IMG/VR virus record: IMGVR_UViG_3300028888_000112
Length of the DNA: 64,000 nucleotides
DNA from: an uncultured virus (IMG/VR IMGVR_UViG_3300028888_000112)
Lineage: Duplodnaviria > Heunggongvirae > Uroviricota > Caudoviricetes
Reading direction: 5' to 3' (one strand)
Shown: positions 3,345 to 45,733 of the stretch, piece by piece
How positions within the stretch are numbered: position 1 is the stretch's first letter
How the letters are laid out: each line of letters opens with the position of its first letter
Translations under genes and position numbers: made by a program
Notes under the pieces: generated by a model
What the model saw: the letters and a program-made list of their open reading frames with translations, nothing else
Database searches by the model: none
Told to the model about the DNA's origin: nothing

Positions 3345-3391
3345 GATTATGAACTTAAAACATAGGAGTATAAGATTATGAACTTAAAACA
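3334..3391 (+). repeat. perfect 29-bp tandem duplication of a translation-start region
   Basis: TAGGAGTATAAGATTATGAACTTAAAACA at 3334-3362 and 3363-3391. Confidence 0.95.
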
Positions 3392-7316: not shown

Positions 7317-8000
7317 ATGTTTGAGCAGCAGCTTTTGATGGATTTTGACAACGGTGGGACTACCATTGAGAGCGAGCCAACCGTTAAGGAAAAGAAGTAC
7401 AAGTACCGCATTGACAAGAAGCTGTTAAGGCTTTGTTGGGCGGGGGACGACGTGAGCAGCAAGGACGCGGCGAGAGCGGCGGCGGAGCTGAAGAAGTTTG
7501 CCAACGTTGTGCTCAAGCGGCACTTTTCAAGTTACACGTATATGGCGCGGGATCTTATAAGCGACGCCATGGCTGCAATATACAGAAAGCGCAGCTACTA
7601 CGATCCCAAGCGTGATCCGTACACGCTGATGTACTGCATCATACGCAACGAGATCGGCAACAAGATATTAAAGTACAGCAAGGAGTACCTTATTGAGGAC
7701 TACGTTGACTACTACAACTCCAACTCCACAGGCAAGGTGGAGTACATGGACGACATACCGAGGTGCGCGTCGAAGTATTTTGACGCTTTGGTTGGGGACA
7801 TAGACGAGAACTACGTTGTAGTGCCGAACAAGGACGTGACCGACCTGCTTGTTTATCTTAAGCTCAACGAGCACCGCTCGCGCATAAAAGCCGCGCCCGA
7901 GTTTATTGAGGCGGAGCAGCACTCGGTGAACGTGATGTACAACCTACTTAAAACAGTTATAGAAAATGGACAACAACAACAGCCTGCTCAGCAAGTCTGA
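7317..8000 (+). CDS. putative phage sigma factor (T4 gp55-like)
   Basis: DLISDAMAAIYRKRSYYDPKRDPYTLMYCIIRNEI resembles sigma region 2; no clear region 4. Confidence 0.55.
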   Translation: MFEQQLLMDFDNGGTTIESEPTVKEKKYKYRIDKKLLRLCWAGDDVSSKDAARAAAELKKFANVVLKRHFSSYTYMARDLISDAMAAIYRKRSYYDPKRDPYTLMYCIIRNEIGNKILKYSKEYLIEDYVDYYNSNSTGKVEYMDDIPRCASKYFDALVGDIDENYVVVPNKDVTDLLVYLKLNEHRSRIKAAPEFIEAEQHSVNVMYNLLKTVIENGQQQQPAQQV

Positions 8001-11971: not shown

Positions 11972-13159
11972 ATGTCAAAGATATCCGAGCTAAACGATTT
12001 CAAGTTAGGCAGAGCGATGGGGGAGGTCACCGAGCGTGAGAAGGTGCTCAAGACGGACAACGTGTACTACAAGCGCGGGTTCAATCTTGGGCGCAAAACC
12101 CGCTCAAAGAAGACCTTGGAGGAGGCGCTTACCGACTCGCAGCTGCGGTCGCAGATAAAGGCGCTCATACAGGAGTACCGCAGGACAAGCGACTCCGCGA
12201 CCTACGCCAAGATAATCGACAAGTACCAACTCCTCTCCGACCGTCAGATAAAGGACGCGGACGACGAGGAGTTCACCCTCTTAGAAGACAAGAACGGCGA
12301 CACCGTTCTCGCGAAGAAGTACACCAAGGAGAACCTTACCGCCGCCAAGGACTACCTGAACGAAAACAGCGACCTTACCATCATCGGTAAGGACGAGGAC
12401 GGTAACGTCTACATCGGCGAAAAAGACGACAACGCGGAAAAGAAAGACGAGAAAGAGGTGATAGAGGACTCACTTAACAATAGGATGGAAAATCGAGTTA
12501 TGGCAACTGAAAAAAACGGTTACAAGCTGCTCCGCGTTAGCGACAGCAAGTACACGGTACACAAGGACGGCGACACGTCCTACACTCTGTACAAGGTTAA
12601 CGACCACTGGGGCTGCACGTGCAGCGGTTACTACTACAGAGGAGCGTGCAAGCATCTCGACATGCTTAGGGGACGCGTAGCAGACTCCGAGTTAGCCAAC
12701 AAAGAGACGCACACTCGCAAGGAAATAGAACAAGTGGCGGATACCTTTAAGACAATACTTGACGGGCGCACGTGGGCTTTAAGCGGCGACTACAGAAGAG
12801 GAGTAGACACGGTCGAAGGTGCAACGATAATCGTAGAGGACTCAGCGGACGGCTTCAAGGCGTTAGCGTCAAAGCTCACCAACGTTATGGTTGCGGACGG
12901 TAACACGATCCGCTGCTACCAAGACAACGTCCCCGTGGTGCTTATACGCGCTGCGGACGGACAGATGGCGACCTTCCTGCTCTCGACGACAGGCTCTGCA
13001 AACGAGAACAAGCGGCTGCGCGACGCTGCGAAGAAGAAGGGGATGCGCTTGGTGGAGAACGGTTTATTCCTTGCGGACGGTACGCTTTTGCGCACACCTG
13101 ACGAGCGAAGTATATATCAGTACATAGGAGAGCGGTACAAAGAACCGTGGGAGAGATAG
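11972..13159 (+). CDS. multidomain protein: SWIM zinc finger plus catalytically degenerate PolX palm/thumb
   Basis: GCTCSGYYYRGACKH; SGDYRRG; TTGS..N.RLR..AKKKG.RL.E.GLF; DE.SIY..IG..Y.EP.ER. Confidence 0.75.
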   Translation: MSKISELNDFKLGRAMGEVTEREKVLKTDNVYYKRGFNLGRKTRSKKTLEEALTDSQLRSQIKALIQEYRRTSDSATYAKIIDKYQLLSDRQIKDADDEEFTLLEDKNGDTVLAKKYTKENLTAAKDYLNENSDLTIIGKDEDGNVYIGEKDDNAEKKDEKEVIEDSLNNRMENRVMATEKNGYKLLRVSDSKYTVHKDGDTSYTLYKVNDHWGCTCSGYYYRGACKHLDMLRGRVADSELANKETHTRKEIEQVADTFKTILDGRTWALSGDYRRGVDTVEGATIIVEDSADGFKALASKLTNVMVADGNTIRCYQDNVPVVLIRAADGQMATFLLSTTGSANENKRLRDAAKKKGMRLVENGLFLADGTLLRTPDERSIYQYIGERYKEPWER

Positions 13160-13840: not shown

Positions 13841-16171
13841 ATGAACAGAGTTAACAAAAGAGTAAGCGACATGGTTTCGCCCTTGTACCACGGTTTAGAA
13901 GACGGTGTGGTGTACAGGTTTTACGTTTACGAGGGGGGCGCGATAGCGGGTGAGGACTTTGAGTACGAGGACGACGCTATAGACTTCGCGCAAGACCTCG
14001 TTGACAGAGGTACGGACTACGAGGTTACGGTTGAGCGTCGTGTGTACGCAACGCCCGAGGACGCAAGCAAAGATTACCCCGTGGACTACGAGGATATTTG
14101 GAGCTCGGAGGACTACAAGGTTTCCGACTCTCGTGTCAGCGACATGACAAAGCCTGTGCATTTGCGGGGGTACGCCAAGATGCGCAGAGATGAGCGTCGC
14201 GCAAAGAACGCGGAGCTGAGGAACGAGGACTTTGAGGAGAAGGAAAAGGACGAGAAGCAGGAAGAGGTCAACGACTCGTACAGAGTAAAGGACGCGGTTG
14301 CGGACGTGCAGCGTGCCGTAGACGAGTTGTATGATTGCCGTTACGAAATAGGAGGTGTTGCCAAGCTGCTCGCACCAAGTGCCAAGCGAGGAGGCAGAGG
14401 CACAATATCTATCACCACAAACGCCGATGCAGTACGCAACAATGCACACGTTGACATATTCAAAGTGGAAAACGATCCCAAGGCGAAAGAAAGGCTTGAG
14501 GAGTTTTACAGTGATTACGCGAACACGGAATTGAAGATTGTTGGAGTGCGCTGCACTTACAACGGTTCGTACAGTGAGAGTATAGCCAACACAACTCCAA
14601 ATCATAACTGGGGAGAGCGTAACTCATACGACATGAGCAGCACCTACGCTCCGTCGGAGTGGGTAATAAACCTTGACGTGGTAGACAATAGCATCGCCGA
14701 CTCCTGTAAGATAAAGGATGGTTTTGCAACCATGTACAACGTTGGCTACAACGAAGATCCTTACAAACTTGCAAGACGCGTGGCACAGCGGGGTACTGTT
14801 TCTTTAAGTTCAAGACATCAGCGTCCACACGATGTGAACGTTAACGAGGACACCGTATTTCGTGTCTACAACGACGGCGACTATAAATACGATGACTTTA
14901 TGTCAAAGTATGGCGTTAACGACTCGCGCAAGATAAAGGACGCGGACGAGGCGGACACCGACACCGACGACGTGATTGACGGTTTGCTTATCATCACCTT
15001 TAAGGACGGCTCACAAGAGGACGGTTTAAACGCCATCAAAGAGCACGCCAACGAGCAGGGGGACGGTTACGAGACCTATGAGGTTAAGGAGCAGGACGGC
15101 AAGGTTGGCGTTGACATGTGCGCACAGACAAGCGATCCCAACGGCTTCGTAAAAGAGCTGCTTAAGGCTTGGGGGGTACTTGACGCGGTAGCGGACGTGG
15201 ACTTCAAGAAGAGCGACCTCATGGAGGAGGCGGAGCAGCAAGAGGAGGTTTCGGACTCACGCAAGATAAAGGACTCGACTTACGGCACAAGCTTCACGCT
15301 TACGAACCCCGTTAACGACTACAATGCGGCACTCGACTACCTACAGGCAGACGACATGACGCGGTATCTCAACAACGACTTGAACTACTTGGGCTTGAGT
15401 CACCTTGAGGGTAAGATAAAGGAGATCAAGTGGGTGCTTGAGGACGAGCAGACAGGTTACATAGTCCTTTACACGACAGAGCCGCTTGTACAGGAAGACC
15501 TTGACAAGATCTCGGAGTGGATATCGGGACAGTGTAGTGACGGTCTTGGTGAGGGCTTTGAGCAACAGGACTTCGCGTCGGGTGAAGACTTTGAGGAATA
15601 CGAGGATGAGGATGGTTACACACAATACGAAGAGGTAAACACTATGGCATCCTTTGACTGGGAGACAAACGACTACAAGCTCAAGTTGTACGACTCCGCA
15701 CGCGTAAAGGACAGCGGCGTAAAGGACTCTATAGACTTTGTGGCAATGCGCAGAGAGGTTGCGAGCACCATATACTCTCTTGAAAAGCTTGGTGAGCCCG
15801 TAACCGTAGACTCGGTTGCGGACTATCTGCACATAAACGAGTACGAGGCAGATCCTGCGATGTTAGACCGTTGGTACGACATTATAGAGGACGAGGTTGA
15901 AAACCAATATGAGCCTGACGCTGAAGACGTTTGGAGGAACGCGGAGGACAACTATCTGCTTGGCAGACGCGCCGACTCCCGCATAAAGGACGGCTGCGGC
16001 GAGGACGCAGAGTTGGTGGATAAGGTTAACAACACGGACATCCTCCGCGACAACAAAAACGGAGGCGTGTACGTTTGGGTTAACGGCCAAAAGAAGAAGT
16101 TCTCCACCAAGAAGGACGCTGAGGCGTACATAAAGAAAACCTTCAACGAGGACGGAACGCCTAAAAAGTAG
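13841..16171 (+). CDS. putative polyprotein with repeated D-S-x-[KR]-[IV]-K-D linkers
   Basis: 776 aa; seven internal linkers separating unrelated segments. Confidence 0.8.
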   Translation: MNRVNKRVSDMVSPLYHGLEDGVVYRFYVYEGGAIAGEDFEYEDDAIDFAQDLVDRGTDYEVTVERRVYATPEDASKDYPVDYEDIWSSEDYKVSDSRVSDMTKPVHLRGYAKMRRDERRAKNAELRNEDFEEKEKDEKQEEVNDSYRVKDAVADVQRAVDELYDCRYEIGGVAKLLAPSAKRGGRGTISITTNADAVRNNAHVDIFKVENDPKAKERLEEFYSDYANTELKIVGVRCTYNGSYSESIANTTPNHNWGERNSYDMSSTYAPSEWVINLDVVDNSIADSCKIKDGFATMYNVGYNEDPYKLARRVAQRGTVSLSSRHQRPHDVNVNEDTVFRVYNDGDYKYDDFMSKYGVNDSRKIKDADEADTDTDDVIDGLLIITFKDGSQEDGLNAIKEHANEQGDGYETYEVKEQDGKVGVDMCAQTSDPNGFVKELLKAWGVLDAVADVDFKKSDLMEEAEQQEEVSDSRKIKDSTYGTSFTLTNPVNDYNAALDYLQADDMTRYLNNDLNYLGLSHLEGKIKEIKWVLEDEQTGYIVLYTTEPLVQEDLDKISEWISGQCSDGLGEGFEQQDFASGEDFEEYEDEDGYTQYEEVNTMASFDWETNDYKLKLYDSARVKDSGVKDSIDFVAMRREVASTIYSLEKLGEPVTVDSVADYLHINEYEADPAMLDRWYDIIEDEVENQYEPDAEDVWRNAEDNYLLGRRADSRIKDGCGEDAELVDKVNNTDILRDNKNGGVYVWVNGQKKKFSTKKDAEAYIKKTFNEDGTPKK

Positions 16172-17220: not shown

Positions 17221-18960
17221 ATGGAGACTTTACTTGAGGTACTTGACGAGGTGTTGTGCAGAACGGAGGTGGTGGACTTCCAAACCTTTGTCACCTCCCC
17301 AAACTTCTGCAACAACCACGACCTCTACGACTATTGGATAGAGAAGGGGATGAGCATAGATCCCAAGACGTCGGAGATTATCCTTGACGGCTCAATTGGT
17401 GGTGGTAAGACAACGTTCTCCAACTACTACTTTGCGTACAGGGTGTACTGCATGTTTGCGCAAGGCTCACCGCAGTCACAGCTTGGCTTGGCGTACAACA
17501 CGGAGATATACTGTCTTTACTTTTCCGTCAGCCTTGACATGGCTAAGAAGTCAGGCTTTCTGCAGTTGTACAACATCTTCAACGAGTGTGCTTGGTTCAA
17601 CGAGAACTACCCCATAGACAAGGGGTTGAGATCAAGTATCAGCTTCCCCAACAAGTTCCACATAGACTACGCGTCTACGGAGAGTCATCAGATAGGCTTG
17701 TCGGTGTGGGGATTCATATTAGACGAGGCGAACTTTAGAAGCGGTGGTGTAGGCACGGGTGTGGCTGAGGAGTACCAAGAGGTCACGCAGCTTTACAATC
17801 AGCTGATGGATCGTTTGGTTTCTCGTTTTAGCAACCCTGACGGCTCAGTCAATGCCTTGGCGATACTTATATCGTCCGCGAGTTATCAGTCGTCCTTTGT
17901 AGAGAAGCGCAAGCAGGTGGTAAAGGGGGACAGGTGGACTACGTGCATCACCTCCGTCAGCTACGAGGTTAAGCCTGAGCGGTACTCCAAGGAGACCTTT
18001 GAGGTGTTTATAGGCTCAGGCTCAGCAGAGCCGTGTATTATTGAGTCGGACGAGCAGAGGACGCAGCTTTTTGCGGCTATTGGAGTTCTTGGTACGGGTG
18101 AGGAGGAGAAGTTTATACGGCACGTGCCTATCAACCTTAAGAAAAACTTCAAGGACAACATAGCTTTAGCCTTGCAGAACCACTGCGGTGTGCCTACGAT
18201 GATTGTGGGTTCGTTTATGTCAAACCTCAAGTATCTCTACGACAGTTACACGGAGGACATACCGACCATTTTCACAACGGAGAGCATTGAGGCTTCCAAC
18301 GAGAACGACACACAGATAATTGAGTATTTAATTCCCAACAACATACAGTTTGCGGAGCGACCGCACAGTTTGTATCTTGACATGAACCTAACAGGTGACC
18401 GTGGCAACCTTACGTGTTTCCGTTATGATGGCAAGAACGCCAAGAACCTTGATGTTCACACGAGGGTGTTCAGCATAAAGATTGTGCCGCCGCACTACCC
18501 TTACGCCACGAAGATAAGCAAGGTGCAGCAGTTTGTTTTTGACATCTCGCAGTTTGTGAACTTGGTGTCGTTTGCCTCTGACCAGTATCAGTCGGAGCAG
18601 TTGCGGCAGGAGGTGACCACTGAGCTTGGGCTTGAGAACATACGGATATCGCTTGACTCCACAGACAAGCCGTACATGCATTGGCAGCGCGGCTTGGTTG
18701 AGGGGCGGATAAGGCAGCAGAAGGACACGCTGCTTGAGCAGGAGGTGCAGGAGGCGATACACGACTACAAGAGGCATAGGGTGGTAAAGGCTAAAGGCTC
18801 GTCGGACGACAACCTGCAAGGCAACGTAGGCGCGTTCTTTCTATCCGACACGTACGGTAAGACGGGCGGCTCAATCGCCGACCTGTACACGGAGAAGATC
18901 AACCTTATAGGCGGCAAGGCGATAAACAGGGTTTTAAGCGAGCTTGGGTACACGAGCTAA
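17221..18960 (+). CDS. terL: terminase large subunit
   Basis: Walker A GSIGGGKT, Walker B FILDEANF, nuclease-domain acidic motifs LYLD, SDQYQS, SSDD; head-module context. Confidence 0.85.
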   Translation: METLLEVLDEVLCRTEVVDFQTFVTSPNFCNNHDLYDYWIEKGMSIDPKTSEIILDGSIGGGKTTFSNYYFAYRVYCMFAQGSPQSQLGLAYNTEIYCLYFSVSLDMAKKSGFLQLYNIFNECAWFNENYPIDKGLRSSISFPNKFHIDYASTESHQIGLSVWGFILDEANFRSGGVGTGVAEEYQEVTQLYNQLMDRLVSRFSNPDGSVNALAILISSASYQSSFVEKRKQVVKGDRWTTCITSVSYEVKPERYSKETFEVFIGSGSAEPCIIESDEQRTQLFAAIGVLGTGEEEKFIRHVPINLKKNFKDNIALALQNHCGVPTMIVGSFMSNLKYLYDSYTEDIPTIFTTESIEASNENDTQIIEYLIPNNIQFAERPHSLYLDMNLTGDRGNLTCFRYDGKNAKNLDVHTRVFSIKIVPPHYPYATKISKVQQFVFDISQFVNLVSFASDQYQSEQLRQEVTTELGLENIRISLDSTDKPYMHWQRGLVEGRIRQQKDTLLEQEVQEAIHDYKRHRVVKAKGSSDDNLQGNVGAFFLSDTYGKTGGSIADLYTEKINLIGGKAINRVLSELGYTS

Positions 18961-21218: not shown

Positions 21219-21788
21219 ATGGATTTGACGAACATTGCAAAGGTTATGCGGGGGGAGTTTGGAGTGCCGCCCAGTCCTCAGGTTGAGGAGACAGACGTGG
21301 TTTCGGAGGAGACTCCGAGGAGCTGCGTTTTGTTTGAGTCGATAAGGACAGCCGCCGCTGAGCGCGGGGTTGCGGACGACGACACGTATTTTAGGCTGTA
21401 CATAGACAGCAAGCTTGAGTCTTTGGGCGACAGCTCGCGTGTGTGCGACTATGTTGATAGGAAGCTTGCGGAGTACGGGGTAAGGGACTTCGGCGCGGAC
21501 ACGCCCCCCGAAAAGGGGGCGGGCGAGGCTGACACCAAGCCTATAGCAAAAGAGATCGAGGACGCGATGCTGAAGTCGGTAGAGAAGGCTTTTGCGGACG
21601 TAAAGCAGATAGAGAACGCCTTGTCGCTGACGGGGGTTGAGTCCGTTGTTGACACCCACGTTATAGGGAAGACGGAGTGTATAAGGGTTAAGGTTACCGA
21701 CGGTGCGGACAAGGTGCGCAGGGCGATGGAGAGCCTTGGGTTTAAGTACAAGTCCAAATATAAGGACTGCTACCATTTTGTATATTAG
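21219..21788 (+). CDS. putative prohead core/scaffold-associated protein
   Basis: Between portal and protease; carries LGDSSRVCD, GVRD, KVTD motifs. Confidence 0.55.
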   Translation: MDLTNIAKVMRGEFGVPPSPQVEETDVVSEETPRSCVLFESIRTAAAERGVADDDTYFRLYIDSKLESLGDSSRVCDYVDRKLAEYGVRDFGADTPPEKGAGEADTKPIAKEIEDAMLKSVEKAFADVKQIENALSLTGVESVVDTHVIGKTECIRVKVTDGADKVRRAMESLGFKYKSKYKDCYHFVY

Positions 21789-21809
21789 AGAGAGTAAGCG
21801 GGGTGTTGT

Positions 21810-22712
21810 ATGTATAAGATGGGGTTAGGCGGTTTTGGGTACAGGAAGCTGTTAAGCGAGAAGCAGTTTTTGCAGGTGCAGAGGCGCGCCCGACAGTTGA
21901 TGAAGTACGGTACGAACCTTGAGTCGATCTTTGTTAAGGAGCAGACGATCATGTACAAGACTCGGTCGAGCGAGTACGACAACAACAGCTACGTGTACAC
22001 GCAGAGGGTTTACATAGAGGATGCGTCGTTTGAGAATATCATAAACGCGAGGAACTATAAGGACATAGAGAAGATAATGCTTAACGGTGGGCTTAAAGTC
22101 CACTGTAACTGTTTAGCCAAGGGGACTAAGGTTTTAACAAAGGACGGTTATAAGGCTATTGAGGACGTTATACCAAACGTTGACTACGTGCTCTCATCGG
22201 ACGAGAAGTGGCATATAGTGGCTGAGGTAAGGGAGTCGGAGCTAAAGGGCAACTGGAAGAGGGTTAGACTTCAGTACAGGGACGAACCGCTTATTATAAC
22301 CACCGACCACAAGATTATGTGGGAGGACGGGGAGATGCGAACTCTTAAGGAGTACAAGGACGGGGACAGAGTACAAGGGGTGCTGTGTCCGCTTGGGGTG
22401 GTGCGTATAGAGGACGCTGAGCCGCAGGTGGGGTACGACGTCTGCTTGTTTGACGAGCCGCACAACTACGTGGCGAATGGGGTTATTGTGTCAAACTGCC
22501 CTGCATTTCACTACTGGGGGTATAAATACAAAGCTTGGAAGATGGGGTACGGTTTGGAGAAGGAGCTGCGGCGACCTGTGATAAGGAACCCGCACGGCAA
22601 GGGTTACGTGTGCAAGCACTTGTACTTTGTGCTGCAGACGTTTCCGTTCTACGCGAAGGAGCTTGCCGCCAAGTTTGGCAAGTACTGGGAGAATGAGCTT
22701 AAAAAACGGTAG
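21810..22712 (+). CDS. SWIM-type zinc finger protein containing a mini-intein
   Basis: Exteins join as HCN-CPAFHYWG...CKHL. Confidence 0.8.
   Translation: MYKMGLGGFGYRKLLSEKQFLQVQRRARQLMKYGTNLESIFVKEQTIMYKTRSSEYDNNSYVYTQRVYIEDASFENIINARNYKDIEKIMLNGGLKVHCNCLAKGTKVLTKDGYKAIEDVIPNVDYVLSSDEKWHIVAEVRESELKGNWKRVRLQYRDEPLIITTDHKIMWEDGEMRTLKEYKDGDRVQGVLCPLGVVRIEDAEPQVGYDVCLFDEPHNYVANGVIVSNCPAFHYWGYKYKAWKMGYGLEKELRRPVIRNPHGKGYVCKHLYFVLQTFPFYAKELAAKFGKYWENELKKR
22110..22496 (+). other. mini-intein (129 aa, no endonuclease)
   Basis: CLAKGTKV start, TTDH block B, YDV...HNYVANGVIVSN end, Cys +1. Confidence 0.9.
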
Positions 22713-22754
22713 GTGGTATTTATATATTATAGTGTAACAATTAAACGCAAGATT

Positions 22755-23012
22755 ATGAGAAGGATTAAGGACAACGGTGGGCGCAGACCTGTTTGGATGC
22801 GGGTTGGGATTAGCTTGGACTGCACGGCTGAGGAGGCTGAGGCTATAATGAGCGGTGAGGGTGCTGACCTGATAAGCGAGATGGTATACGAAGGACGTTT
22901 CAGTCTTGACGGTGACGCGTACGTACCTGACTCGGTTGTAGAGGAGTACGACGCGGCGTACGGCACTAACTACGGTGCGTACGGGGCGGACGAGATTGCT
23001 TACACGTTGTAG
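22755..23012 (+). CDS. small acidic protein with MRRIKD leader
   Basis: Likely start ATG 22755 after TATATATTA at 22721. Confidence 0.7.
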   Translation: MRRIKDNGGRRPVWMRVGISLDCTAEEAEAIMSGEGADLISEMVYEGRFSLDGDAYVPDSVVEEYDAAYGTNYGAYGADEIAYTL

Positions 23013-23075: not shown

Positions 23076-23774
23076 ATGGATAAGATTCAGACAATACGGC
23101 GTGGTAAGATGAAGATTTGCGACAGCGTAAAGCTTGACAACGGTACTACGATTCCCACTTTGATGGGGCAGTGCTCGGAGGTTGACGTTATGTCGCAGAA
23201 CGGTTATTACTACAAGGCGGATTTTTGGCGCAATATACTGAGTCAGCAGTACGTGGTGGACGCGATTAAGAATCGGGACATGCTTGGTATGGTGGAGCAT
23301 CCGACGGACGATGAGGACTACTTGAAAACTCCTTATGATCGTGCGAGTCACGTTATATTGAAGGCTTGGGTTGAGGACGATGGGAATCCGTGGGCTCAGT
23401 TCGGTTTGTTAAACAACGAGCAGGGCAACAACATAAAGGCTCTAATAGAGGTCGGGCATCGTACGGGCGTGTCGAGTCGTGGTCTTGGTGAGATGGCTAC
23501 GGACGACAAGGGGCAGTACGTCACCGATGACAATTATATGTTCATCACATGGGACATTGTAAGGTCGCCTAATTTCGCCGACCTAAAGCTTGACAAGGTT
23601 ACGGACTCCTTGAGACAGTCACCAATCTTCAAGGAGCTTGTGCAGATGAACCAATTGCGGGATTCTGCAGACGAACATTACTCGGGCTCAAGTTTGGCGA
23701 AGAGTATGCGGACTGCGATAGATGCTTTGAAGGATATTGAGCGCGTTTTACTTAGTAACGAACTTAAACATTAG
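23076..23774 (+). CDS. prohead core protease (T4 gp21-like)
   Basis: NGYYY, GMVEHP, ASHVI, GVSSRGLG, WDIVRSP motifs; directly upstream of capsid gene. Confidence 0.9.
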   Translation: MDKIQTIRRGKMKICDSVKLDNGTTIPTLMGQCSEVDVMSQNGYYYKADFWRNILSQQYVVDAIKNRDMLGMVEHPTDDEDYLKTPYDRASHVILKAWVEDDGNPWAQFGLLNNEQGNNIKALIEVGHRTGVSSRGLGEMATDDKGQYVTDDNYMFITWDIVRSPNFADLKLDKVTDSLRQSPIFKELVQMNQLRDSADEHYSGSSLAKSMRTAIDALKDIERVLLSNELKH

Positions 23775-23779
23775 CAGAA

Positions 23780-25333
23780 ATGAGTGAATTAATGACATTA
23801 GGCTCGTGCTTGTCGACTCAGCAGAAGAATTGGAACGACAGCATTAGCGCGGCTCACCGCGTAGCTGACAGCTACATGAAGTGCGCCGAGATGGACGAGA
23901 CTTCTAACGACGTGCGCACCCTTGGGTTCACCGCACAATTGTTGAACAACTTTGCCGCAAAGCACGGCTCTTTTGAGAAGGCTTACAACGCTTTTGGTCG
24001 CGTAAGCGATAGCGCAGCCATTTCGAATCCCTTTGATTCTCAAGGACATGTGTCGAATTTCGGTCCTTGGATCATGGATGTGTTCCCGCTGATTACCGCG
24101 TGGTATCCAGAATTCCCGTTGAAGGATTTGGTGTCTGTGCAGGAGATGGAGAAGCCGCTTGCTTGGATGTTCTTCTCGACTTTGAAGACAGGCACAAACA
24201 AGGCTGACACCACTATTGGTGAGGTTGTTGAGACTGCTACAGGCATGCGTACCTTGAAGGCGCGCTACGTAACAGGCGAGATTTTTGGTGAGGCTATCAC
24301 TGCCGCTGACGTGCGCTTTGACTCTACCGAGAAGGTTTCGCAGGTTATGCTTGCCTACGCTCCTATCAACTTGGCTGACGACTACAAGGAGAAGCTGCTG
24401 CTTAGCATCACCGTTGGTGGCACAGCAACAGAGTACTTCTACCACAGCGACAGCCAAGGCGTGATCACCTTCGCTTACGACAACGCGGGTACGGAGACCG
24501 TTAAGGATGGCTTGAGCCTTGAGATCGAGACAGGCTTGCTGACATACGCTGAGGCTAACGACGCTACAGCAACCACAATCCAAAGCATCGACGCCAACTA
24601 CGTGTGGGATTTGGACTACGCTACCACAGACAACATTCCTCGCGTTAAGGAGGACGTTGAAAAGGTAGAGATGGTTGCCAAACCGCGTGCCTTGATGCTT
24701 GAGTGGACACTGTTTGCTGAGTACCTGAAAAAGACTCAGTTCGGTCAGGACATTCAGCAAGACAACCTGCGCCGCTGCCTTGACCTGATGTACCAATATC
24801 AGGTTAAGTACATACTGGATGACATGTACACCCACGCTAAGGGCAACAGCGGAGCGGTTACCAACATCAACATCCCGTCGAGCTCGACTTACAGCACTGA
24901 CGTTAAGGTACAGCAGGTGCTTGAGCAGCTGAACGCCGTAGCAAACGAGATCGAGATCCAAAGCGGTCGCATGAGCGGCAACCGTATTGTGATAGGTCGC
25001 GGCTTCAAAGCCTTCTTGGAGTCTTTGCCGACAACCTACTACAAGGCAACCGCCGACAACTCGAAAGCCTTCAGCTCACCGCGTGAGATTGGCGAGTTTG
25101 GTGGATTCAAGGTTTACTACAACCCGTTCTTCACCAACACATGGGAAGGCTTCATGACCTACCGCGGCAGCGAGTTCTACGACGCAAGCTACTACATGGG
25201 CATGTACATGCCGCTGACAACCACCGACACCGTAACACTTGGTGTTACCGCAAAGCAGAGCTTTGTGTCGATGGAGGCTTACAAATATCACAAACCAAAC
25301 TGTGTATTCAAGCTGAAGTTCCAAGCCGCCTAA
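23780..25333 (+). CDS. major capsid protein (T4 gp23-like)
   Basis: 517 aa; DLVSVQEMEKP, VAKPRAL..EWT, FKVYYNP, YMP blocks. Confidence 0.9.
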   Translation: MSELMTLGSCLSTQQKNWNDSISAAHRVADSYMKCAEMDETSNDVRTLGFTAQLLNNFAAKHGSFEKAYNAFGRVSDSAAISNPFDSQGHVSNFGPWIMDVFPLITAWYPEFPLKDLVSVQEMEKPLAWMFFSTLKTGTNKADTTIGEVVETATGMRTLKARYVTGEIFGEAITAADVRFDSTEKVSQVMLAYAPINLADDYKEKLLLSITVGGTATEYFYHSDSQGVITFAYDNAGTETVKDGLSLEIETGLLTYAEANDATATTIQSIDANYVWDLDYATTDNIPRVKEDVEKVEMVAKPRALMLEWTLFAEYLKKTQFGQDIQQDNLRRCLDLMYQYQVKYILDDMYTHAKGNSGAVTNINIPSSSTYSTDVKVQQVLEQLNAVANEIEIQSGRMSGNRIVIGRGFKAFLESLPTTYYKATADNSKAFSSPREIGEFGGFKVYYNPFFTNTWEGFMTYRGSEFYDASYYMGMYMPLTTTDTVTLGVTAKQSFVSMEAYKYHKPNCVFKLKFQAA

Positions 25334-39297: not shown

Positions 39298-39579
39298 ATG
39301 AACTTAAAGCAAAGACTCGGAAAGAGAAAAATAAAGGACAGTAAGGGTGGTGGGTACGTTGCTATGTGGACGAACCTTTACAATCCCTCGCGGTCAGTCC
39401 CTGTTGCGATGTCAAACGACTACGACAGAATGAAGGAGTACATAAACCAACATTGTGAAATCTACGTAAGAGAGCAGGGGGCGAGGATTCAAGACGGTGG
39501 CGACTTTAATAAGACTGTCATTTTCGAAGATGGAGGGGTTTACAACCTTTGGGTTAAGGAAGATATTGAGGTTTTGTAG
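39298..39579 (+). CDS. MNLK-leader protein
   Basis: MNLKQRLGKRKIKD. Confidence 0.75.
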   Translation: MNLKQRLGKRKIKDSKGGGYVAMWTNLYNPSRSVPVAMSNDYDRMKEYINQHCEIYVREQGARIQDGGDFNKTVIFEDGGVYNLWVKEDIEVL

Positions 39580-39609
39580 TTGCTTACTAAATAATAAAAT
39601 ATTAGAGTT

Positions 39610-40008
39610 ATGAACTTAAAACAGATATTTGGACGGTATAGAATATTTGACGCGGTAGGCTCGGATAAGTTCGGGTACAACGTCCGCGTCACCTCATACG
39701 AGGTTGTTGACGGTTTGGGACGTTACAATTGCCGTTACAGCGAAGCCAACGGCAACATTAAGGTTGACGTAAGGTTTATCGCTTGGATTAAGCAGGAGGG
39801 TACTAAGCCTGTCAAAATAGACGAATTTGTGCTTAACGACAACTCAATCTCTGACGAGGAGTTCGGGTTTTTGACAGACGGTAACGACGAATTCCGACAG
39901 GCGGTGCTTGCTGAGGCGCGGCTTTTCAAACAAGGCATGGCAAGCGGGGACTACCGTGGCTTGGGCATTGATTGGGACGGAGGTTTTTATTATACTTACG
40001 AAAAATAA
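39610..40008 (+). CDS. MNLK-leader protein
   Basis: MNLKQIFGRYRIFD. Confidence 0.75.
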   Translation: MNLKQIFGRYRIFDAVGSDKFGYNVRVTSYEVVDGLGRYNCRYSEANGNIKVDVRFIAWIKQEGTKPVKIDEFVLNDNSISDEEFGFLTDGNDEFRQAVLAEARLFKQGMASGDYRGLGIDWDGGFYYTYEK

Positions 40009-40017
40009 CACGGAGCT

Positions 40018-40491
40018 ATGAACTTAAAGAGACTAATGAGGGTTAAGGACTCGGAGAACTACGAGTTAAACTGGGACGCCGTTTTGCACATAACAGCAGG
40101 TAACGCAGACTCGGACATTTTGCTTGACGTGCTTGACCATGGTGAGCGAGCGTATGGCGACCGTAATAGGGACGTCTTTAGCGAGTACGAGAGTCGGTTT
40201 GACAGATATTTGGATAGTGCCGAAAAGTCGCTAAGGGTAAACGAGGCTGATAGTAGCAGTGAGCGGAGAGAGCTCGAAAACAAGGCTTGGATACGTGCAA
40301 ACTTTAAAGCGTTGCAGAGTATGCTGCCCGACGCAGACACCTTTGCGAAGTACTATCACAATTATCTGCGGGCGGTGCGACGCATAAAACCAAGCGACAA
40401 GGCGTTCTTGGAGAGCTTTGTAAAGGACGTAAGAAAGGTTAGTCCGTACGGAGAGTACGACCGTGGTGACAATGTTTTTTATCTCAAATAG
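40018..40491 (+). CDS. MNLK-leader protein
   Basis: MNLKRLMRVKD. Confidence 0.75.
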   Translation: MNLKRLMRVKDSENYELNWDAVLHITAGNADSDILLDVLDHGERAYGDRNRDVFSEYESRFDRYLDSAEKSLRVNEADSSSERRELENKAWIRANFKALQSMLPDADTFAKYYHNYLRAVRRIKPSDKAFLESFVKDVRKVSPYGEYDRGDNVFYLK

Positions 40492-40570
40492 CGCAATTAA
40501 TAGTCTATGCACGGTTCAGATATCTACGACTGTTTTGTAGAGATTGTTAAATAATTAAAATATTGGAGTT

Positions 40571-41317
40571 ATGAACTTGAAGAAGTTAATGAGGATTAAG
40601 GACGCTAAGAGTGAGGCTGAGAAGCAGTTTAATATTTTGCTTAAGAAAGTTTGGCGCGGCGACTATTCTTCGGCACAATATATTGACTACCCAAAGTGGA
40701 AGGCAGTGGGGGTTTATTTTGATGAAGTACCGCTTGGAGATGGTCGATCCTTATGGTTAAGGATCGACTTTGAACAGAATGACCCACGGCGCGTTAGTGT
40801 AGCATTTGAGGTTGGCACAGAAGCAGCTAGAACGGGATGGTTTTTAGACTTTAAAAAGAATGTTGTGCCGTACAAACGCACGGGAAAAGAAAAAAGAATA
40901 AATTCTGAAGCCTTTGAGTTGTACAAACCCGATTTTATTAAGTATTATAAAAATTACATAACACAGGACGTCATTGACGGTATGCGGGAAGAGTTTAATA
41001 AGAAAATGGGGAATTACTTGGATAAGAGTCAAATGACCTCGTTAAAGTCTAAGTTGAAAAATATTTTATACAGCTGCGGTCAAGACGCGAGCGACTTTGA
41101 TTATGATGTAACTGAAAGGGATACGATTCGCGTGTACGGGTACTTTAAGGCGTACGGAGACAGTTATGGCGCAACTTGTTACTATCGAGACGGTGTGTTT
41201 GACGGTATGGACAATAGCGGTTCGGAGAGTTTGGGTAACAGAGTCCGCAGTATAGCCAACGCGATATATAGAGAGACAAAGGTTCCCAATGTTGTGGTTT
41301 CAATATCGTATGATTAA
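40571..41317 (+). CDS. MNLK-leader protein
   Basis: MNLKKLMRIKD. Confidence 0.75.
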   Translation: MNLKKLMRIKDAKSEAEKQFNILLKKVWRGDYSSAQYIDYPKWKAVGVYFDEVPLGDGRSLWLRIDFEQNDPRRVSVAFEVGTEAARTGWFLDFKKNVVPYKRTGKEKRINSEAFELYKPDFIKYYKNYITQDVIDGMREEFNKKMGNYLDKSQMTSLKSKLKNILYSCGQDASDFDYDVTERDTIRVYGYFKAYGDSYGATCYYRDGVFDGMDNSGSESLGNRVRSIANAIYRETKVPNVVVSISYD

Positions 41318-41361
41318 TTTTATTTTGCAGAGCTTTTTAAATAAGATAAAATATTAGAGTT

Positions 41362-41634
41362 ATGGTGGATTATAACTATGATGATTTAAGTTATTCTGAA
41401 AGAATTGGAATAATAGAAGATTATTATTTTTATTATGAGTTTGGAGATGTAATAAGAGATGCAAAAAAAATGTTTTCTGACGAAGATAAAGTTTGGGATT
41501 ATTTAGATGGATATATAGATGATATTGTTTATGGCAATTTTTCCAAACCTCTACATTCTTGTATTAAAGACAAGTATGATAAAGAGATGCTTTTTTGGGA
41601 TTTAAGACGTTACGTTAAGGGAAAATATTTATAG
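41362..41634 (+). CDS. acidic Tyr-rich protein (AT-rich gene)
   Basis: 90-aa ORF directly after the conserved element. Confidence 0.65.
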   Translation: MVDYNYDDLSYSERIGIIEDYYFYYEFGDVIRDAKKMFSDEDKVWDYLDGYIDDIVYGNFSKPLHSCIKDKYDKEMLFWDLRRYVKGKYL

Positions 41635-41674
41635 ATTTGTGGAGATTGTTAAATAGAATTAAAATATTAGAGTT

Positions 41675-41986
41675 ATTGACAACGCTAAAAAACCTATTGG
41701 ATTTTATAATTATTTAAAATCTTTTTTAAATGAGTTTCGTCTTATAGATGACGAAGTAATTGAAGATGAATCTTTGTTTTACGAAGATGAAGAACAAAGG
41801 AGTGCTTTTGAAACAGGTGTGATACGAGGTGAGAGTATGAGTCTTGAATGGACGTTCAATACTTTGTTACTAAAGTTTATTTATTTTTTAAATAAAAAAG
41901 AAATAAATGATGATACCTTTAGTTTAGATGATGCTGATTGGAATAAACTTCGTATAGAATTTATTGAATATTTTAAAAAATCATAA
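41675..41986 (+). CDS. acidic protein with ATT at the expected start position (AT-rich gene)
   Basis: Frame open from ATT 41675 into ORF 41774-41986. Confidence 0.5.
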   Translation: MDNAKKPIGFYNYLKSFLNEFRLIDDEVIEDESLFYEDEEQRSAFETGVIRGESMSLEWTFNTLLLKFIYFLNKKEINDDTFSLDDADWNKLRIEFIEYFKKS

Positions 41987-41994
41987 TATACATT

Positions 41995-42513
41995 ATGCAC
42001 AGTTCAGTCATCTACGACCATATAGTCCGAGCCTTATTCGCAATGATAGGCGGAATACTCGCATACATAGAGCCGCTTCAAGAAGTGATGTATGTGGTGT
42101 TCGCAACCATATTGGTTGATGTAGCGACCGCGTATCTGCTCAGCCGACGGGTTGCACACAAATACAAAGGAGTATCGCACGGCAAGATTCAGTCGCAGCG
42201 GTTGAAGTCCATGGGGCGGACGGTGGTCGGCATTTTGGCTATTATACTGCTGCTGCAGGGGATCGATCAGTACTGCTTTGTGTACGCGGACTTAAAGCTT
42301 CCGTATCTTGCGGCGTCCGCGTTTTGTATGATACAGGTTGTGAGTATCCTTGAGAATATGAGCAGCTGCAACGACGCGAAGTGGGCGAGGCTGCTGCAGA
42401 AGATACTTGTGGACAAGACCGCAAGGCACTTCGATATGACGGCGGGGGACTTCATTAAAGAGGTGCAGGATATGAAAGCAGAAGAGAATGAAAAAAGTAA
42501 GGGTAAAAAATAA
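41995..42513 (+). CDS. putative holin
   Basis: Several TM helices, VVSILENM motif, charged C-terminus. Confidence 0.7.
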   Translation: MHSSVIYDHIVRALFAMIGGILAYIEPLQEVMYVVFATILVDVATAYLLSRRVAHKYKGVSHGKIQSQRLKSMGRTVVGILAIILLLQGIDQYCFVYADLKLPYLAASAFCMIQVVSILENMSSCNDAKWARLLQKILVDKTARHFDMTAGDFIKEVQDMKAEENEKSKGKK

Positions 42514-42519
42514 GGTGCT

Positions 42520-43248
42520 ATGCGAGTAAATATTGATGCTAATACTGCTACTGATATTCAGAGACTGCGTGAGCTGCTTACAACCATTAAGGTGAGAGGC
42601 TTGGAGGGAGGCTTGGGTGTGTCGGAAAATCACTACCAATCAAAAAATCAGTTTAGTTTTGAGTTGGTGGACGGCATGGATAGAATTATTGGTGGCGGCG
42701 GACACATAAAGGAGTATTGGGGGTATTTAAAGGAGGACGGTGCGTGGTATGAGTGCAACGTTTGTATAAACGGTGACTATCGTCAGTATGCGACAGGCAT
42801 CACGGATAGATGCTCTTTTAAACCGCTGTATATAGATTCGCTTGAGGAGAGCGGATACGGCAAGCACCGCGCAATGAATGCGGACGAGCGCAAGCTTGTG
42901 CTTGAGTATCTAAAGTGGGTGCTTAATGGTGTCAAGACGTACCCCGAAACCGAGCTGCAGAAAGACTTTCTGCCGCTTGTAAGCGAGATTGTTAAAGGAA
43001 AGCGTAAAACTATCGATGGCACTGAGGTTTATAAATACAGTGCGGTTTTAGGCAACAAAGAGATAGAGATTTTAGACCAATATGATAATTTTTGCGGCTC
43101 GATGGCTTTTTCGGAAACGGATGGTGCGTACAATCTGCACGTAAAAAGAATCTCGGTTTACAAGTACGAGAAAGACTTGGTGTTTGACATCGACAACTGC
43201 GAAAATGTTATTGAAGAAGGGGTTGATATAATAATCAATTTAAAGTAG
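42520..43248 (+). CDS. hypothetical protein
   Basis: 242-aa ORF. Confidence 0.7.
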   Translation: MRVNIDANTATDIQRLRELLTTIKVRGLEGGLGVSENHYQSKNQFSFELVDGMDRIIGGGGHIKEYWGYLKEDGAWYECNVCINGDYRQYATGITDRCSFKPLYIDSLEESGYGKHRAMNADERKLVLEYLKWVLNGVKTYPETELQKDFLPLVSEIVKGKRKTIDGTEVYKYSAVLGNKEIEILDQYDNFCGSMAFSETDGAYNLHVKRISVYKYEKDLVFDIDNCENVIEEGVDIIINLK

Positions 43249-43254
43249 AGTGAT

Positions 43255-43890
43255 ATGAACTTAAAGATGTTAATGCGTGTAAGGGATGCGAAAAATATCG
43301 TATTTACAACAGCCGAAGGTTTTAGGTTTGAAATAACCGAAAATGCCAAGGGAAGATTTAATGGTAGTTTCTATGTTGCCGATTGCTCGCACATGGGCGA
43401 TATAGATAGAGTAGAACAATATATAAGGAGTTGTGGTGGAAGTATCAGAGAACACTATTGGAATGGTAGAGATGGTGGCGAGGCTTATGTTTTGTTTTAC
43501 GCCAACGATGTAAGAGCATACGCGAATATTATTAGTGCGGCGCAGCGAGGTCTTGAAAAATATTTAAATGTTATTAAAGATTGGGTGGTCAGTGTTGATA
43601 CGGAAGATTATCATATTGTAAACAACAACGGAGTTTTAAAGTGGGAGTATGCGGGACGAATGAAAGAAATAATGTTAGCGAGAAAAGCAGAAGCCGAGCG
43701 TGAAAGGCAGATAGCAAAAGAAAGAGCCATAGAAAGATATAAAGGCTATATTGAAGAGGTAAATGGAGAGATTTATTATTATCACAGGGACGGTTCGTTA
43801 TTTAATAAATATCCTGCCCATGAGTTTTACGACAAGTTGTACAAAGATTACGGTATTACACCCGAAGAGATGGAGCAGTGTTTTATATGA
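43255..43890 (+). CDS. MNLK-leader protein
   Basis: MNLKMLMRVRD. Confidence 0.75.
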   Translation: MNLKMLMRVRDAKNIVFTTAEGFRFEITENAKGRFNGSFYVADCSHMGDIDRVEQYIRSCGGSIREHYWNGRDGGEAYVLFYANDVRAYANIISAAQRGLEKYLNVIKDWVVSVDTEDYHIVNNNGVLKWEYAGRMKEIMLARKAEAERERQIAKERAIERYKGYIEEVNGEIYYYHRDGSLFNKYPAHEFYDKLYKDYGITPEEMEQCFI

Positions 43891-43937
43891 AACTAATCCT
43901 TTATTTTAATTAAAGTTTTTTAAAAAAATAAGGCACT

Positions 43938-44771
43938 ATGAACTTAAAGAGGTTAATGCAAAGTCGTGGTATGATACGCGACGCTAAGATATCGGAGAAG
44001 GACTTTAGCAAGTCCGTGACGGGGGTTGCGTACAAGGTGTTCCGTTTTAAGGACGGCAAGCTGTACCCGCCGATGGTAAGCAATATAGGCGGCACGGACA
44101 CGCCTGTTGGAGTTTGGCTTGACGCGGAGGAGGGAGAGTTTGCGGGCTTATCAAAAACGGGACGTCCGCAGGTTGTAAACTCGCAGTCATCGAGTCAGCC
44201 CTTGGCGTACCGACCTGGCTGGCACTTAGGCGATCTGCCGCGCGCAAAGCAGTTCGACCGTAAGGTTAGTTGGGTAGAGGTGGAACAGCCGCTTACAGGC
44301 GACGTAAAGACAACACGCGACGAGCTAACCTTAATGAGCCTCGCGAAAAACGAGAACTTGGGTAAGTATTTTTACTTAAAGGATAGCGGCAAGTATGTGC
44401 AGATTGTAAACGACAACGCGCCGTACTTCCCTTACGATTTTGTGTGGGCGGAGTGCGACTATGCTGCGGACGTAAACTATCAGGACGAGGCGGATGAGAT
44501 GGGGTACATGAGGACGAACCCCGACGGCACGTTTTATCGCGGCAACTCCTTTGTGCACTCGCTTGCGGGGTTGAAGCATCTGCCCGAGAACGGGTTCTAC
44601 CGTTACAGAACCAATCCACGCCCCGACACCGTGCCTTGGGTTATCACGGGGGCGATGAGGGTTAACCGCTTGCTTGACGACTTTGATGTGAGCGACATTC
44701 TTGGCGGCAACGCACCCGAGCGGCAGGGAGGCAACCTGACGCTTGAGGAGATGGGGTTGGCGCAGATCTAA
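43938..44771 (+). CDS. MNLK-leader protein with conserved globular domain
   Basis: MNLKRLMQSRGMIRD; AYKVF, KLYP, LAYRPGWH, VWAE, YRYRTNP. Confidence 0.8.
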   Translation: MNLKRLMQSRGMIRDAKISEKDFSKSVTGVAYKVFRFKDGKLYPPMVSNIGGTDTPVGVWLDAEEGEFAGLSKTGRPQVVNSQSSSQPLAYRPGWHLGDLPRAKQFDRKVSWVEVEQPLTGDVKTTRDELTLMSLAKNENLGKYFYLKDSGKYVQIVNDNAPYFPYDFVWAECDYAADVNYQDEADEMGYMRTNPDGTFYRGNSFVHSLAGLKHLPENGFYRYRTNPRPDTVPWVITGAMRVNRLLDDFDVSDILGGNAPERQGGNLTLEEMGLAQI

Positions 44772-45283: not shown

Positions 45284-45733
45284 ATGGAAAAGATAGCAGA
45301 TGGCAACTACGAGGACAAGAGCTACTCGGTAAAGTACGAGGAGGTTGTGGACGCTTTTTTGGCTATGCTGACAAGCGACTTTAATGACAAGGATATTCAA
45401 ACCGTCAAGGATGGGTTCTACCTGCTGCTTACCGCAGACATGGTGGACGCTGCCTTTAAGGAGGCTAAGCGCAGCTTAAAGGATGAGGTTTCTGATTCAC
45501 GCAGGATTAAGGATAGTGCGGTTGATATTGAGGACGCTGTTTACGAGAAGTTTATAAACGCGTCAGCAGAAACGCGCGACGAGTTGGTTGAGCTTATCGA
45601 CAAGAACTACGACATGGAGGAGTTTGAGTCAACGGACGACCTTGCGAACTCGCTCTACAACTACTTAGACTTTCTTTTGCCGCAGTTGTCGGACGATGCG
45701 GTTATTGACTTGCAGGATAGTGGTTATTTGTAA
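45284..45733 (+). CDS. two-segment acidic protein with EVSDSRRIKD linker
   Basis: MEKIAD start; same linker type as the 776-aa protein. Confidence 0.75.
   Translation: MEKIADGNYEDKSYSVKYEEVVDAFLAMLTSDFNDKDIQTVKDGFYLLLTADMVDAAFKEAKRSLKDEVSDSRRIKDSAVDIEDAVYEKFINASAETRDELVELIDKNYDMEEFESTDDLANSLYNYLDFLLPQLSDDAVIDLQDSGYL

Follow-up and report, generated by a model that had tools for sequence, protein, structure and literature searches.

What is the product of a gene that joins eight unrelated segments into one chain by means of a recurring double-Asp peptide, and that lies about 1 kb upstream of a series of head genes on the same strand? The question is posed by an open reading frame (ORF) of 776 amino acids (aa) in a 64,000-nucleotide (nt) stretch of IMG/VR record IMGVR_UViG_3300028888_000112, hereafter the window, which is a strand-uniform piece of an uncultured phage of 140,339 bp (by the record of the protein). 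We consider it fairly likely that the ORF encodes a head-targeted cargo polyprotein, which the phage would cut after Asp with its own prohead protease.

A chain of eight segments and a repeated linker

A preliminary description of this DNA had reported the 776-aa ORF together with a leader and seven linkers at particular residues, and all of these were found in place, behind an ATG start. The linkers share the build [VIL]-x-D-S-(x)-[RK]-[VI]-[KS]-D, with a third site in linker 6; read with its preceding Lys, the first is KVSD-SRVSD (aa 93-101). The parts are as follows, a slash within a motif marking the proposed cut (L014, L016 and L017 are metagenomic DNA relatives, P0002 and P0005 homologous proteins).

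13841..16171, plus strand: 776-aa polyprotein ORF; the whole protein is without a Pfam family
13841..13870, plus strand: leader MNRVNKRVSD, ending R-V-S-D/M
13871..14119, plus strand: module 1, aa 11-93, acidic; no family found
14120..14143, plus strand: linker 1, VSD-SRVSD, aa 94-101; DNA breakpoints relative to L014, L016 and L017
14144..14266, plus strand: module 2, aa 102-142, MTKPVHLRGYAKMRR..., basic then acidic; kept in most homologues
14267..14293, plus strand: linker 2, VND-SYRVKD, aa 143-151
14294..14692, plus strand: module 3, aa 152-284
14693..14719, plus strand: linker 3, IAD-SCKIKD, aa 285-293; crossover with linker 4 in L014
14720..14914, plus strand: module 4, aa 294-358; missing from P0002/L014
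14915..14941, plus strand: linker 4, VND-SRKIKD, aa 359-367; breakpoints in L014, L016 and L017
14942..15247, plus strand: module 5, aa 368-469; better conserved across the family than any other module
15248..15274, plus strand: linker 5, VSD-SRKIKD, aa 470-478; a 245-nt module insertion here in L016
15275..15685, plus strand: module 6, aa 479-615, GQCSDGLGEGFEQ family; a widespread stand-alone protein of about 135-150 aa
15686..15727, plus strand: linker 6, LYD-SARVKD-SGVKD, aa 616-629, three sites; breakpoint in L016
15728..15967, plus strand: module 7, aa 630-709; missing from P0005
15968..15991, plus strand: linker 7, RAD-SRIKD, aa 710-717
15992..16168, plus strand: module 8, aa 718-776; the sole basic module, isoelectric point (pI) 8.75

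The segments between linkers measure 41-137 aa, and most are very acidic, with a pI of about 4.05. As had been proposed, they are mutually unrelated, the best match among the eight having a BLAST E of 0.45 and the best phmmer score being 6.5 bits. When the segments were searched individually against Pfam, PHROGs and NCBIfam (in the last case all except module 2), nothing rose above noise, and a PDB sequence search with module 6 gave 0 matches. The ESM Atlas returned no feature matches and only generic small-domain look-alikes for a low-confidence model (whole-protein predicted local distance difference test score, pLDDT, 0.47); for module 5 these were ferredoxin-like, with template modelling (TM) scores of 0.5-0.6. 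Similarly, a cluster look-up gave no informative name, one member being labelled 'hypothetical protein', and a promoter and terminator scan was uninformative.

The repetition of the linker, on the other hand, far exceeds chance. The single site [RK][VI][KSAR]D[SAGMN] occurs 9 times in the polyprotein versus 13 times in the other 18,708 aa of window ORFs (97 ORFs of at least 50 aa were compared), and in 10,000 composition-preserving shuffles of the polyprotein it averaged 0.09 and never exceeded 3. For the double motif the corresponding counts are 6 in the polyprotein and 1 elsewhere in the window, with a mean of 0.0016 and a maximum of 1 in 10,000 shuffles; the seventh linker, RRAD-SRIKD, was not caught by the regular expression used for counting. 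The single outside copy is EVSD-SRRIKD in the ORF at 45284-45733, where a linker had been claimed before. Variants noted earlier in the ORFs at 10029 and 21219 are likewise present, as MERVSD/V and KQIRD/S in the former and LGD-SSRVCD in the latter. Sites also stand near protein starts: 9 of the 97 window ORFs have one within their first 30 aa, where 0.74 would be expected, and most of these leader-bearing ORFs start MNLKxLMR[VI]KD/[SA].

The linker motif in the capsid protein and the prohead protease

If the linkers are cut, which enzyme would cut them? The head-gene series downstream of the polyprotein gene offers a candidate.

17221-18960, plus strand: large terminase
19519-21084, plus strand: T4-type portal (Pfam Portal_T4, 1.3e-7)
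21219..23012, plus strand: motif-bearing head-module genes, p189 (LGD-SSRVCD) and p99 (MRRIKD/N), between portal and protease
23076..23774, plus strand: S77 (T4 gp21-type) prohead protease (PF03420, PHROG), with ICD16/S, VTD177/S and LRD196/S
23780-25333, plus strand: gp23-type major capsid protein (Pfam Gp23, 1.4e-19)
23999..24010, plus strand: R-V-S-D77 in the capsid propeptide, the proposed maturation site

Three small head-module genes separate the portal and protease genes. The protease had been predicted at 23076-23774, and its assignment to S77 is borne out by Pfam (PF03420, 1.2e-8) and by PHROG 207, 'head maturation protease' (3.4e-26); its segment GVSSRGLG aligns with GVASRGLG of T4 gp21 chain 5jbl.

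Indeed, the linker motif recurs in both the capsid protein and the protease. The earlier suggestion that it matches the capsid maturation site agrees with RVAD/S (aa 27-30) and RVSD/S (aa 74-77) in the N-terminal propeptide of the capsid protein, the latter 17 residues ahead of where the first conserved block of the fold begins. All four aligned capsid proteins (43-72% identity) keep Asp77, although the surrounding propeptide varies; [LIV]-x-E is found nowhere in the first 100 residues of the capsid protein. An alignment of Asp77 to T4 Glu65 was abandoned, the four-capsid profile matching T4 gp23 in its C-terminal part only. Within the protease, sites are located near the N terminus (K-I-C-D16/S) and in the C-terminal tail (K-V-T-D177/S and L-R-D196/S). 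All three are invariant in the three aligned proteases (47-74% identity), and matching motifs occupy the same positions in L021 and L022 (48-51% identity). In T4 and SPN3US, capsid proteins lose an N-terminal propeptide and the protease cuts itself C-terminally (PMC9026906, PMC10052503), and T4 gp21 also has a site near its own N terminus (PMC9026906).

At every linker site P1 is Asp, and so the T4 rule, cleavage after Glu in (L/I)-x-E, does not describe these sites; Asp at P1 in fact blocks processing by T4 gp21 (PMC9026906). Because the motif recurs where S77 proteases cut, namely in the capsid protein, at the protease termini and in leaders, the S77 enzyme of this phage most likely cuts after Asp in [VIL]-x-D. 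The polyprotein itself has the leader MNRVNKRVSD/M, and 31 of its 48 linker-bearing homologues, described below, have leaders of the type M[KR][RQ][VI]xD.

Alternatively, the cuts could come from a different protease, encoded by the host or, as an enzyme not recognised here, by the phage, or the chain could cleave itself at Asp-Ser. This would accord with the failure of T4 gp21 to cut after Asp (PMC9026906), given that the specificity of the S77 enzyme is itself a prediction. However, S77 is the sole peptidase family detected in the window ORFs and in G001, a complete relative of which 148 of the 150 largest ORFs were scanned, and the motif flanks the S77 protease where S77 enzymes self-cut, which makes another agent very improbable. 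The zincin MPTase (MPTase-PolyVal, PF18818) was not found in G001, nor any peptidase domain in the polyprotein.

A mosaic family with recombination at the linkers

Do the linkers divide the chain into units that behave separately? To examine the family we used a word-indexed search, which gave 30 proteins at E of at most 1e-3, and an exhaustive phmmer search of 1.84 billion representatives, which gave 359. The linker is present in 48 of 163 fetched proteins, and 46 of these 48 contain at least two. Their linkers total 188, and in 158 the spacing is the canonical 9 residues. In these 158, counted with D-S and the final D fixed by the regular expression and other positions free, P3 of the first half is V or I in 150, R or K precedes the second half in 156, and P3 of the second half is I or V in all 158.

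Cutting the 30 proteins at their linkers yielded 161 modules that fall into 60 families. The preliminary description had named two outcomes that would count against modularity, homologues that are always collinear and full length and linkers that lie inside domains. Instead, the homologues are mosaics in which module order differs: in distant homologues module 5 stands ahead of modules 2 and 4, while the order in the query is 2, 3, 4, 5. Nearly every homologue has module 5 (27 of the 161 modules; 43 copies in 45 polyproteins) and many have module 2, and the other modules vary. By homology, a linker lies inside none of 77 module copies from the 45 other polyproteins. In fact, module boundaries and linkers coincide closely. 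Module 5 starts within 5 residues of the preceding linker in 34 of the 41 copies that have one and ends within 8 residues of the following linker in 41 of 43, and all 11 copies of module 2 begin immediately after a linker. In the module 2 sequences read (MTKPxHLRGYAEKxRxKRR..., 35-45 aa; homologues P0012, P0014 and P0018-P0020) the Met follows the cut site, and this module is sometimes tandemly duplicated in family members.

Stand-alone relatives provide an independent view of the boundaries of module 6. Of 78 stand-alone module-6 proteins no longer than 200 aa, 58 align their first residue to query aa 476-479 (P1' of the linker is aa 479) and 49 align their last residue to aa 617-620 (the first Asp of the next linker is aa 618). 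By these sequence comparisons, the linker-bounded segments are independent modules. Of the stand-alone or reshuffled homologues for which a segment-wise search had been suggested, reshuffled ones were found, and stand-alone ones were found for module 6 and for none of modules 1-5, 7 and 8. Shorter homologues of aa 1-478 number 5, all of them shorter linker-bearing polyproteins, and aa 619-776 has 1, a truncated chain.

Some counts and searches were set aside or came back empty. A count of non-collinear homologues based on high-scoring segment pairs (37 of 71) was left unused, since gapped alignments running through acidic tails had raised it. In IMG/VR, G001 came up through an alignment centred on module 5; a scan with the whole protein had been empty, its search patterns lying in acidic low-complexity stretches. 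A DNA pattern for V-x-D-S-R-K-I-K-D, run against IMG/VR, retrieved only G001 and its duplicate, plus two chance sites.

How did the mosaics arise? The idea that modules are swapped at linker DNA was directly borne out when the ORF was compared with the three metagenomic relatives L014, L016 and L017, which are 88-90% identical, in that both homology breaks and hybrid linkers were found. DNA homology ends at the paired ORF positions aa 7 and 92, 294 and 361, 99 and 361, 467 and 469 (where a 245-nt module is inserted), 625 and 681, and 156 and 358. For all but one of 14 homology ends (the exception being aa 681), the distance to the leader or a linker is at most about 5 residues, and the alignments flanking the breakpoints overlap by 6-23 nt in the relative. 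The linkers at these junctions are hybrids, joining the left half of linker 3 to the right half of linker 4, linker 1 to linker 4, or the leader to linker 1. The 27 nt of the linker are joints where phages lose, gain and exchange modules.

That the linkers are similar as DNA, as claimed earlier, also holds: they read GAC TCN ... RTA AAG GAC, with synonymous differences (TCT/TCG/TCC/TCA; CGT/CGC/AGA). Since the codons vary synonymously, selection acts on the peptide. Purely DNA-level conservation was rejected as the main signal, AAG and GAC being codons preferred by the phage and the Ser and Arg codons being variable. Within the polyprotein gene, linker codons are more uniform than codon bias predicts (TCN for the P1' Ser in 7 of 7; ATA or GTA at P3 in 7 of 8), as repeated exchange between linkers would produce.

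These observations bear on the possibility that the protein is never cut and acts, or is delivered, whole, as an uncut polyvalent protein whose linkers are flexible spacers and recombination joints. There is a precedent, as the N4 virion RNA polymerase is a polyvalent protein packaged unprocessed (PMC5512222), and the recombination role of the linkers stands by itself. A mere spacer, however, needs neither an invariant Asp and [VI] at fixed spacing, as in the 158 canonical linkers (D-S and final D being fixed by the search), nor a match to conserved sites in capsid protein and protease, and the synonymous variation argues for selection on the peptide. We consequently think it improbable that the chain remains intact.

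A more far-reaching interpretation would be that the linker is a general 'load, cut and swap' joint, such that any domain placed between two linkers is loaded into the capsid, cut out by the prohead protease and passed on to the next host, cargo being exchanged by recombination at the shared 27-nt joint, with the switch from Glu to Asp at P1 as a private cleavage code of the lineage. We offer this tentatively, as a generalisation that may well be wrong. It would resemble the exchange of cassettes in integrons, here at the level of protein domains. It is pure speculation that the Asp switch might let the phage escape host sensors of Glu-specific prohead proteases, such as the activation loops of cyclic-oligonucleotide-based antiphage signalling systems (CBASS; PMC12991175).

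A proposed route from head gene to delivered cargo

How might such a protein be used? We infer cleavage after Asp, packaging, ejection and an effector function, in the following order. The 776-aa chain would be made late, from a gene just upstream of those for terminase, portal, protease and capsid, and would be taken into the core of the assembling prohead. There the S77 prohead protease would cut after Asp in [VIL]-x-D/[SAGM] at both halves of each linker, releasing eight modules of about 5-16 kDa with near-native ends, along with basic spacer peptides of 5-11 residues. The freed modules would stay with the DNA, enter the host alongside it and act at entry. In its folded state T4 IPI would be small and compact enough to pass the ~30 Å portal (PMC9026906), and this may be the reason for cutting the chain into small pieces.

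Clues to module functions come mainly from module 6, whose GLGEGFEQ motif had been linked to mobile-element proteins. This link holds for mobile elements of Clostridia. Module-6 relatives account for 140 of 189 candidate stretches in GTDB species genomes; nearly all come from gut Clostridia, frequently with several in one genome, and Acutalibacter caecimuris, for example, has seven listed module-6-family loci on seven contigs. One protein, P0049, combines module 6 with an ArdA antirestriction domain (9.5e-23); of 29 proteins scanned, 4 show a HIRAN fusion that passes the Pfam cut-off, and a fifth (P0159) matches below it. In a conserved Clostridia block (L038, L077), a GLGEGFEQ-domain gene (281-284 aa) comes directly after an ArdA-domain gene and is followed, in this order, by genes for DUF4314, a C5 methylase, a D12 (N6) methylase, ArdA+LPD28 and YodL+DUF3846. 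Similarly, the polyprotein homologue P0008 carries LPD11 (1.9e-29). The Clostridia gene set corresponds to the one known from establishment regions and from polyvalent proteins (PMC5512222; Iyer et al. 2017). Thus the ArdA and LPD gene company of module 6 suggests, by guilt of association only, roles at DNA entry, which would fit delivery from the capsid.

The same observations help to judge whether the chain is instead scaffold or core filler, chopped like T4 gp22, gp67 and gp68 into fragments that are gone from the capsid by the time DNA packaging is complete and do nothing in the next host. Most modules are indeed strongly acidic (pI about 4), the motif is also present in head-module proteins between portal and protease, and T4 core proteins are cut to several fragments that mostly leave the head (PMC9026906). 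Yet an assembly part should be conserved and collinear, whereas here 30 proteins yield 60 module families and swaps are seen even at 88-90% DNA identity. Furthermore, module 6 is a folded domain common to ArdA-linked genes of conjugative elements, and one homologue has LPD11. Taken together, these points lead us to regard a scaffold role as unlikely.

Returning to the proposed cargo polyprotein, we asked whether its genomic setting is maintained. G001, the complete relative, measures 142,338 bp, has direct terminal repeats and encodes a capsid protein about 70% identical. In the same slot, between the Pol-beta-thumb protein and terminase, G001 has three multi-linker proteins (686, 774 and 584 aa), so that the genomic place of the polyprotein gene is conserved. 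As the counterpart of the genes between portal and protease, G001 has two MNLKxLMDSKKIKD genes together with one for a 411-aa protein that contains three linkers. In L021, where the protease identity is 51%, the interval from portal to protease encodes three paralogous small proteins of 153-154 aa (L021:5829-7247), each starting MF..V.CKRGVKV[IV]D/S...RVKD/, a double-site leader.

This setting is relevant to a further alternative, in which the chain is processed in the cytoplasm by S77 or another protease and never packaged, the ORF being a compact route to eight equimolar small proteins. T4 gp21 alone acts on a host protein in vivo (PMC12991175) and so can cut outside proheads, and some family members have no N-terminal leader. 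Nonetheless, the gene is part of a late head-gene block, antirestriction-type modules made late would be of little use to the producing cell, and the leaders resemble the targeting-plus-cleavage tags of T4, and we therefore doubt that processing takes place without packaging.

Several points weigh against a packaged and cleaved cargo polyprotein. An Asp specificity would be a change from T4 gp21 for which no published precedent was found; the literature searched gave no paper joining 'prohead protease' with 'after aspartate'. The commonest leader in the family has 6 residues (MKRVKD), fewer than the 10 needed for targeting in T4, and P0035-P0037 start directly with module 6, without a leader. 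The modules are mostly acidic (pI about 4.05) and the T4 internal proteins are described as basic (PMC9026906); acidic pieces could leave the capsid like scaffold fragments. Family, Atlas and PDB searches found a known function for none of the modules of the query, and, as noted, stand-alone relatives were found for module 6 alone. A sequence-propensity test for disorder at the linkers, a crude heuristic, was not significant (random placements reached the observed value with a frequency of 0.087). Finally, a cultured relative was not found, tblastn searches with the ORF and with module 6 against cultured phages and plasmids giving 0 matches.

Among known systems, the internal proteins of T4 (IPI, IPII, IPIII and Alt) and gp21 are the closest in outline. 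They share with the present case an S77-type protease, a short N-terminal leader ending at a protease site (here a putative one), the same type of site in the capsid propeptide and in the protease itself, and a variable, non-essential-looking set of cargo (here a proposed one) small enough for the portal (PMC9026906). The T4 capsid targeting sequence has been seen as a means for T4-like phages to load varied proteins (PMC9026906). In contrast, up to eight modules are fused here in one ORF with internal double sites, P1 is Asp, and the modules are mostly acidic where those of T4 are basic (PMC9026906). Sequence homology to the T4 internal proteins was not detected, no match being found in the phage collection.

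Polyvalent proteins, in which a polypeptide of a phage or conjugative element combines two to 15 unrelated domains (Iyer, Burroughs, Anand, de Souza and Aravind 2017; PMC5512222), are similar in a different respect. Like them, the polyprotein has many unrelated domains and extensive mosaicism, as seen in its eight mutually dissimilar segments and mosaic family. It is also encoded beside virion genes, with delivery alongside DNA proposed for both (PMC5512222), and its family may draw on a shared domain pool (LPD11 in P0008; the module-6 family with ArdA, LPD28 and YodL), the modules of the query being without a Pfam match. Processing of polyvalent proteins has been proposed to depend on an in-cis zincin-like MPTase domain (PMC5512222), whereas we propose cleavage in trans of small modules (41-137 aa) at a standard 9-residue linker. 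In PMC5512222 the word 'linker' has 0 occurrences and 'prohead' one.

Giant phages such as phiKZ, 201phi2-1 and SPN3US, with gp175/gp245-type proteases, also cut many head proteins, with several cuts per chain; their ejection or inner-body proteins include cargo ejected into the host, and the protease removes its own C-terminal propeptide (PMC10052503). Their A-x-E cuts, however, shred N-terminal propeptides and leave one mature C-terminal piece (PMC10052503), whereas here each piece is a distinct, exchangeable module and P1 is Asp, not Glu. The present case differs from these systems in the concatenation of exchangeable modules by a standard double-site linker, the predicted cutting in trans by the prohead protease, and the Asp at P1. 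We found no description of linker-joined cargo polyproteins of this kind in open-access papers and bioRxiv. Outside phages, retroviral Gag and Gag-Pol are comparable in that a polyprotein enters the immature particle and is cut inside it by the viral protease. Those proteins are unrelated to the present one, and Gag pieces are structural and fixed in order, while the pieces here would be accessory and are shuffled.

If the proposal is correct, a T4-type head would load a changeable set of small proteins from one gene in fixed proportions, by an exact sequence rule, and the set would evolve by recombination at linkers. The S77 prohead proteases, whose studied members cut after Glu, would gain an Asp-specific member, and a defined tag and linker would become available for loading phage heads with foreign proteins. 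About 60 uncharacterised module families would also be flagged as candidate counter-defence factors acting at entry, including the widespread GLGEGFEQ domain that occurs beside ArdA in mobile elements of gut Clostridia.

Leaders and linkers are found at further loci of the window:

39298..44771, plus strand: low-GC island with six small MNLKxL..R[VI]xD/[SA] genes (39298, 39610, 40018, 40571, 43255, 43938)
45284..45733, plus strand: two-module protein with leader MEKIAD/G and linker VSD-SRRIKD at nt 45488-45514

The second module of the 45284-45733 protein is similar to the last module of polyprotein P0064 (43% identity, E 1.6e-19). The island has a GC content of 0.37-0.42. A conserved ribosome-binding site plus ATGAACTTAAAR is common to the leader-bearing small genes; nine leader genes share ...GAGTTATGAACTTAAAR, six of them within the island. 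At 3334-3391, upstream of gene 3378, a perfect 29-nt tandem duplication comprises a ribosome-binding site and the start of an MNLK leader.

Other genes of the window merit brief mention. Just upstream of the polyprotein gene, a 395-aa protein (11972-13159) has a C-terminal DNA polymerase beta thumb (2.2e-14) and a CxC...CxH stretch; it contains internal RVSD/S (aa 188-191) and RVAD/S (aa 235-238), with similar sites in the G001 orthologue, and may be another protease substrate. In the portal-protease interval, the 300-aa head-module protein at 21810-22712 (...HCN/CLAKGTKVL ... GVIVSN/CPAF, where the slashes mark the apparent splice points) seems to hold a mini-intein, with a weak Pfam Intein_splicing match (E 0.0092, aa 205-229) and Hom_end_hint at 4.2e-5 in the G001 orthologue. 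In G001 itself (L008:5240-6748; L012:13379-18856), a second intein, which includes a LAGLIDADG domain, and a BspA-type leucine-rich-repeat protein of 1825 aa are encoded. As for the host, a weak hint at best comes from the fragment L027, which carries terminase and portal, is 78% identical over module 6 and was assigned by binning to a Paludibacteraceae metagenome-assembled genome. The 356-aa protein at 194-1264 begins with a Tad3 domain (type I Thoeris inhibitor; 2.2e-17, and 5.1e-21 in the G001 orthologue), and a TnpB/IS605 OrfB-type gene lies inside the phage at 3994-5193 (OrfB_IS605, 2.1e-29, with helix-turn-helix and Cas12f1-like TNB domains). Lastly, the phage-encoded protein at 7317-8000 has a sigma-70 region 2 domain (4.9e-6) and may be a late-gene sigma factor.

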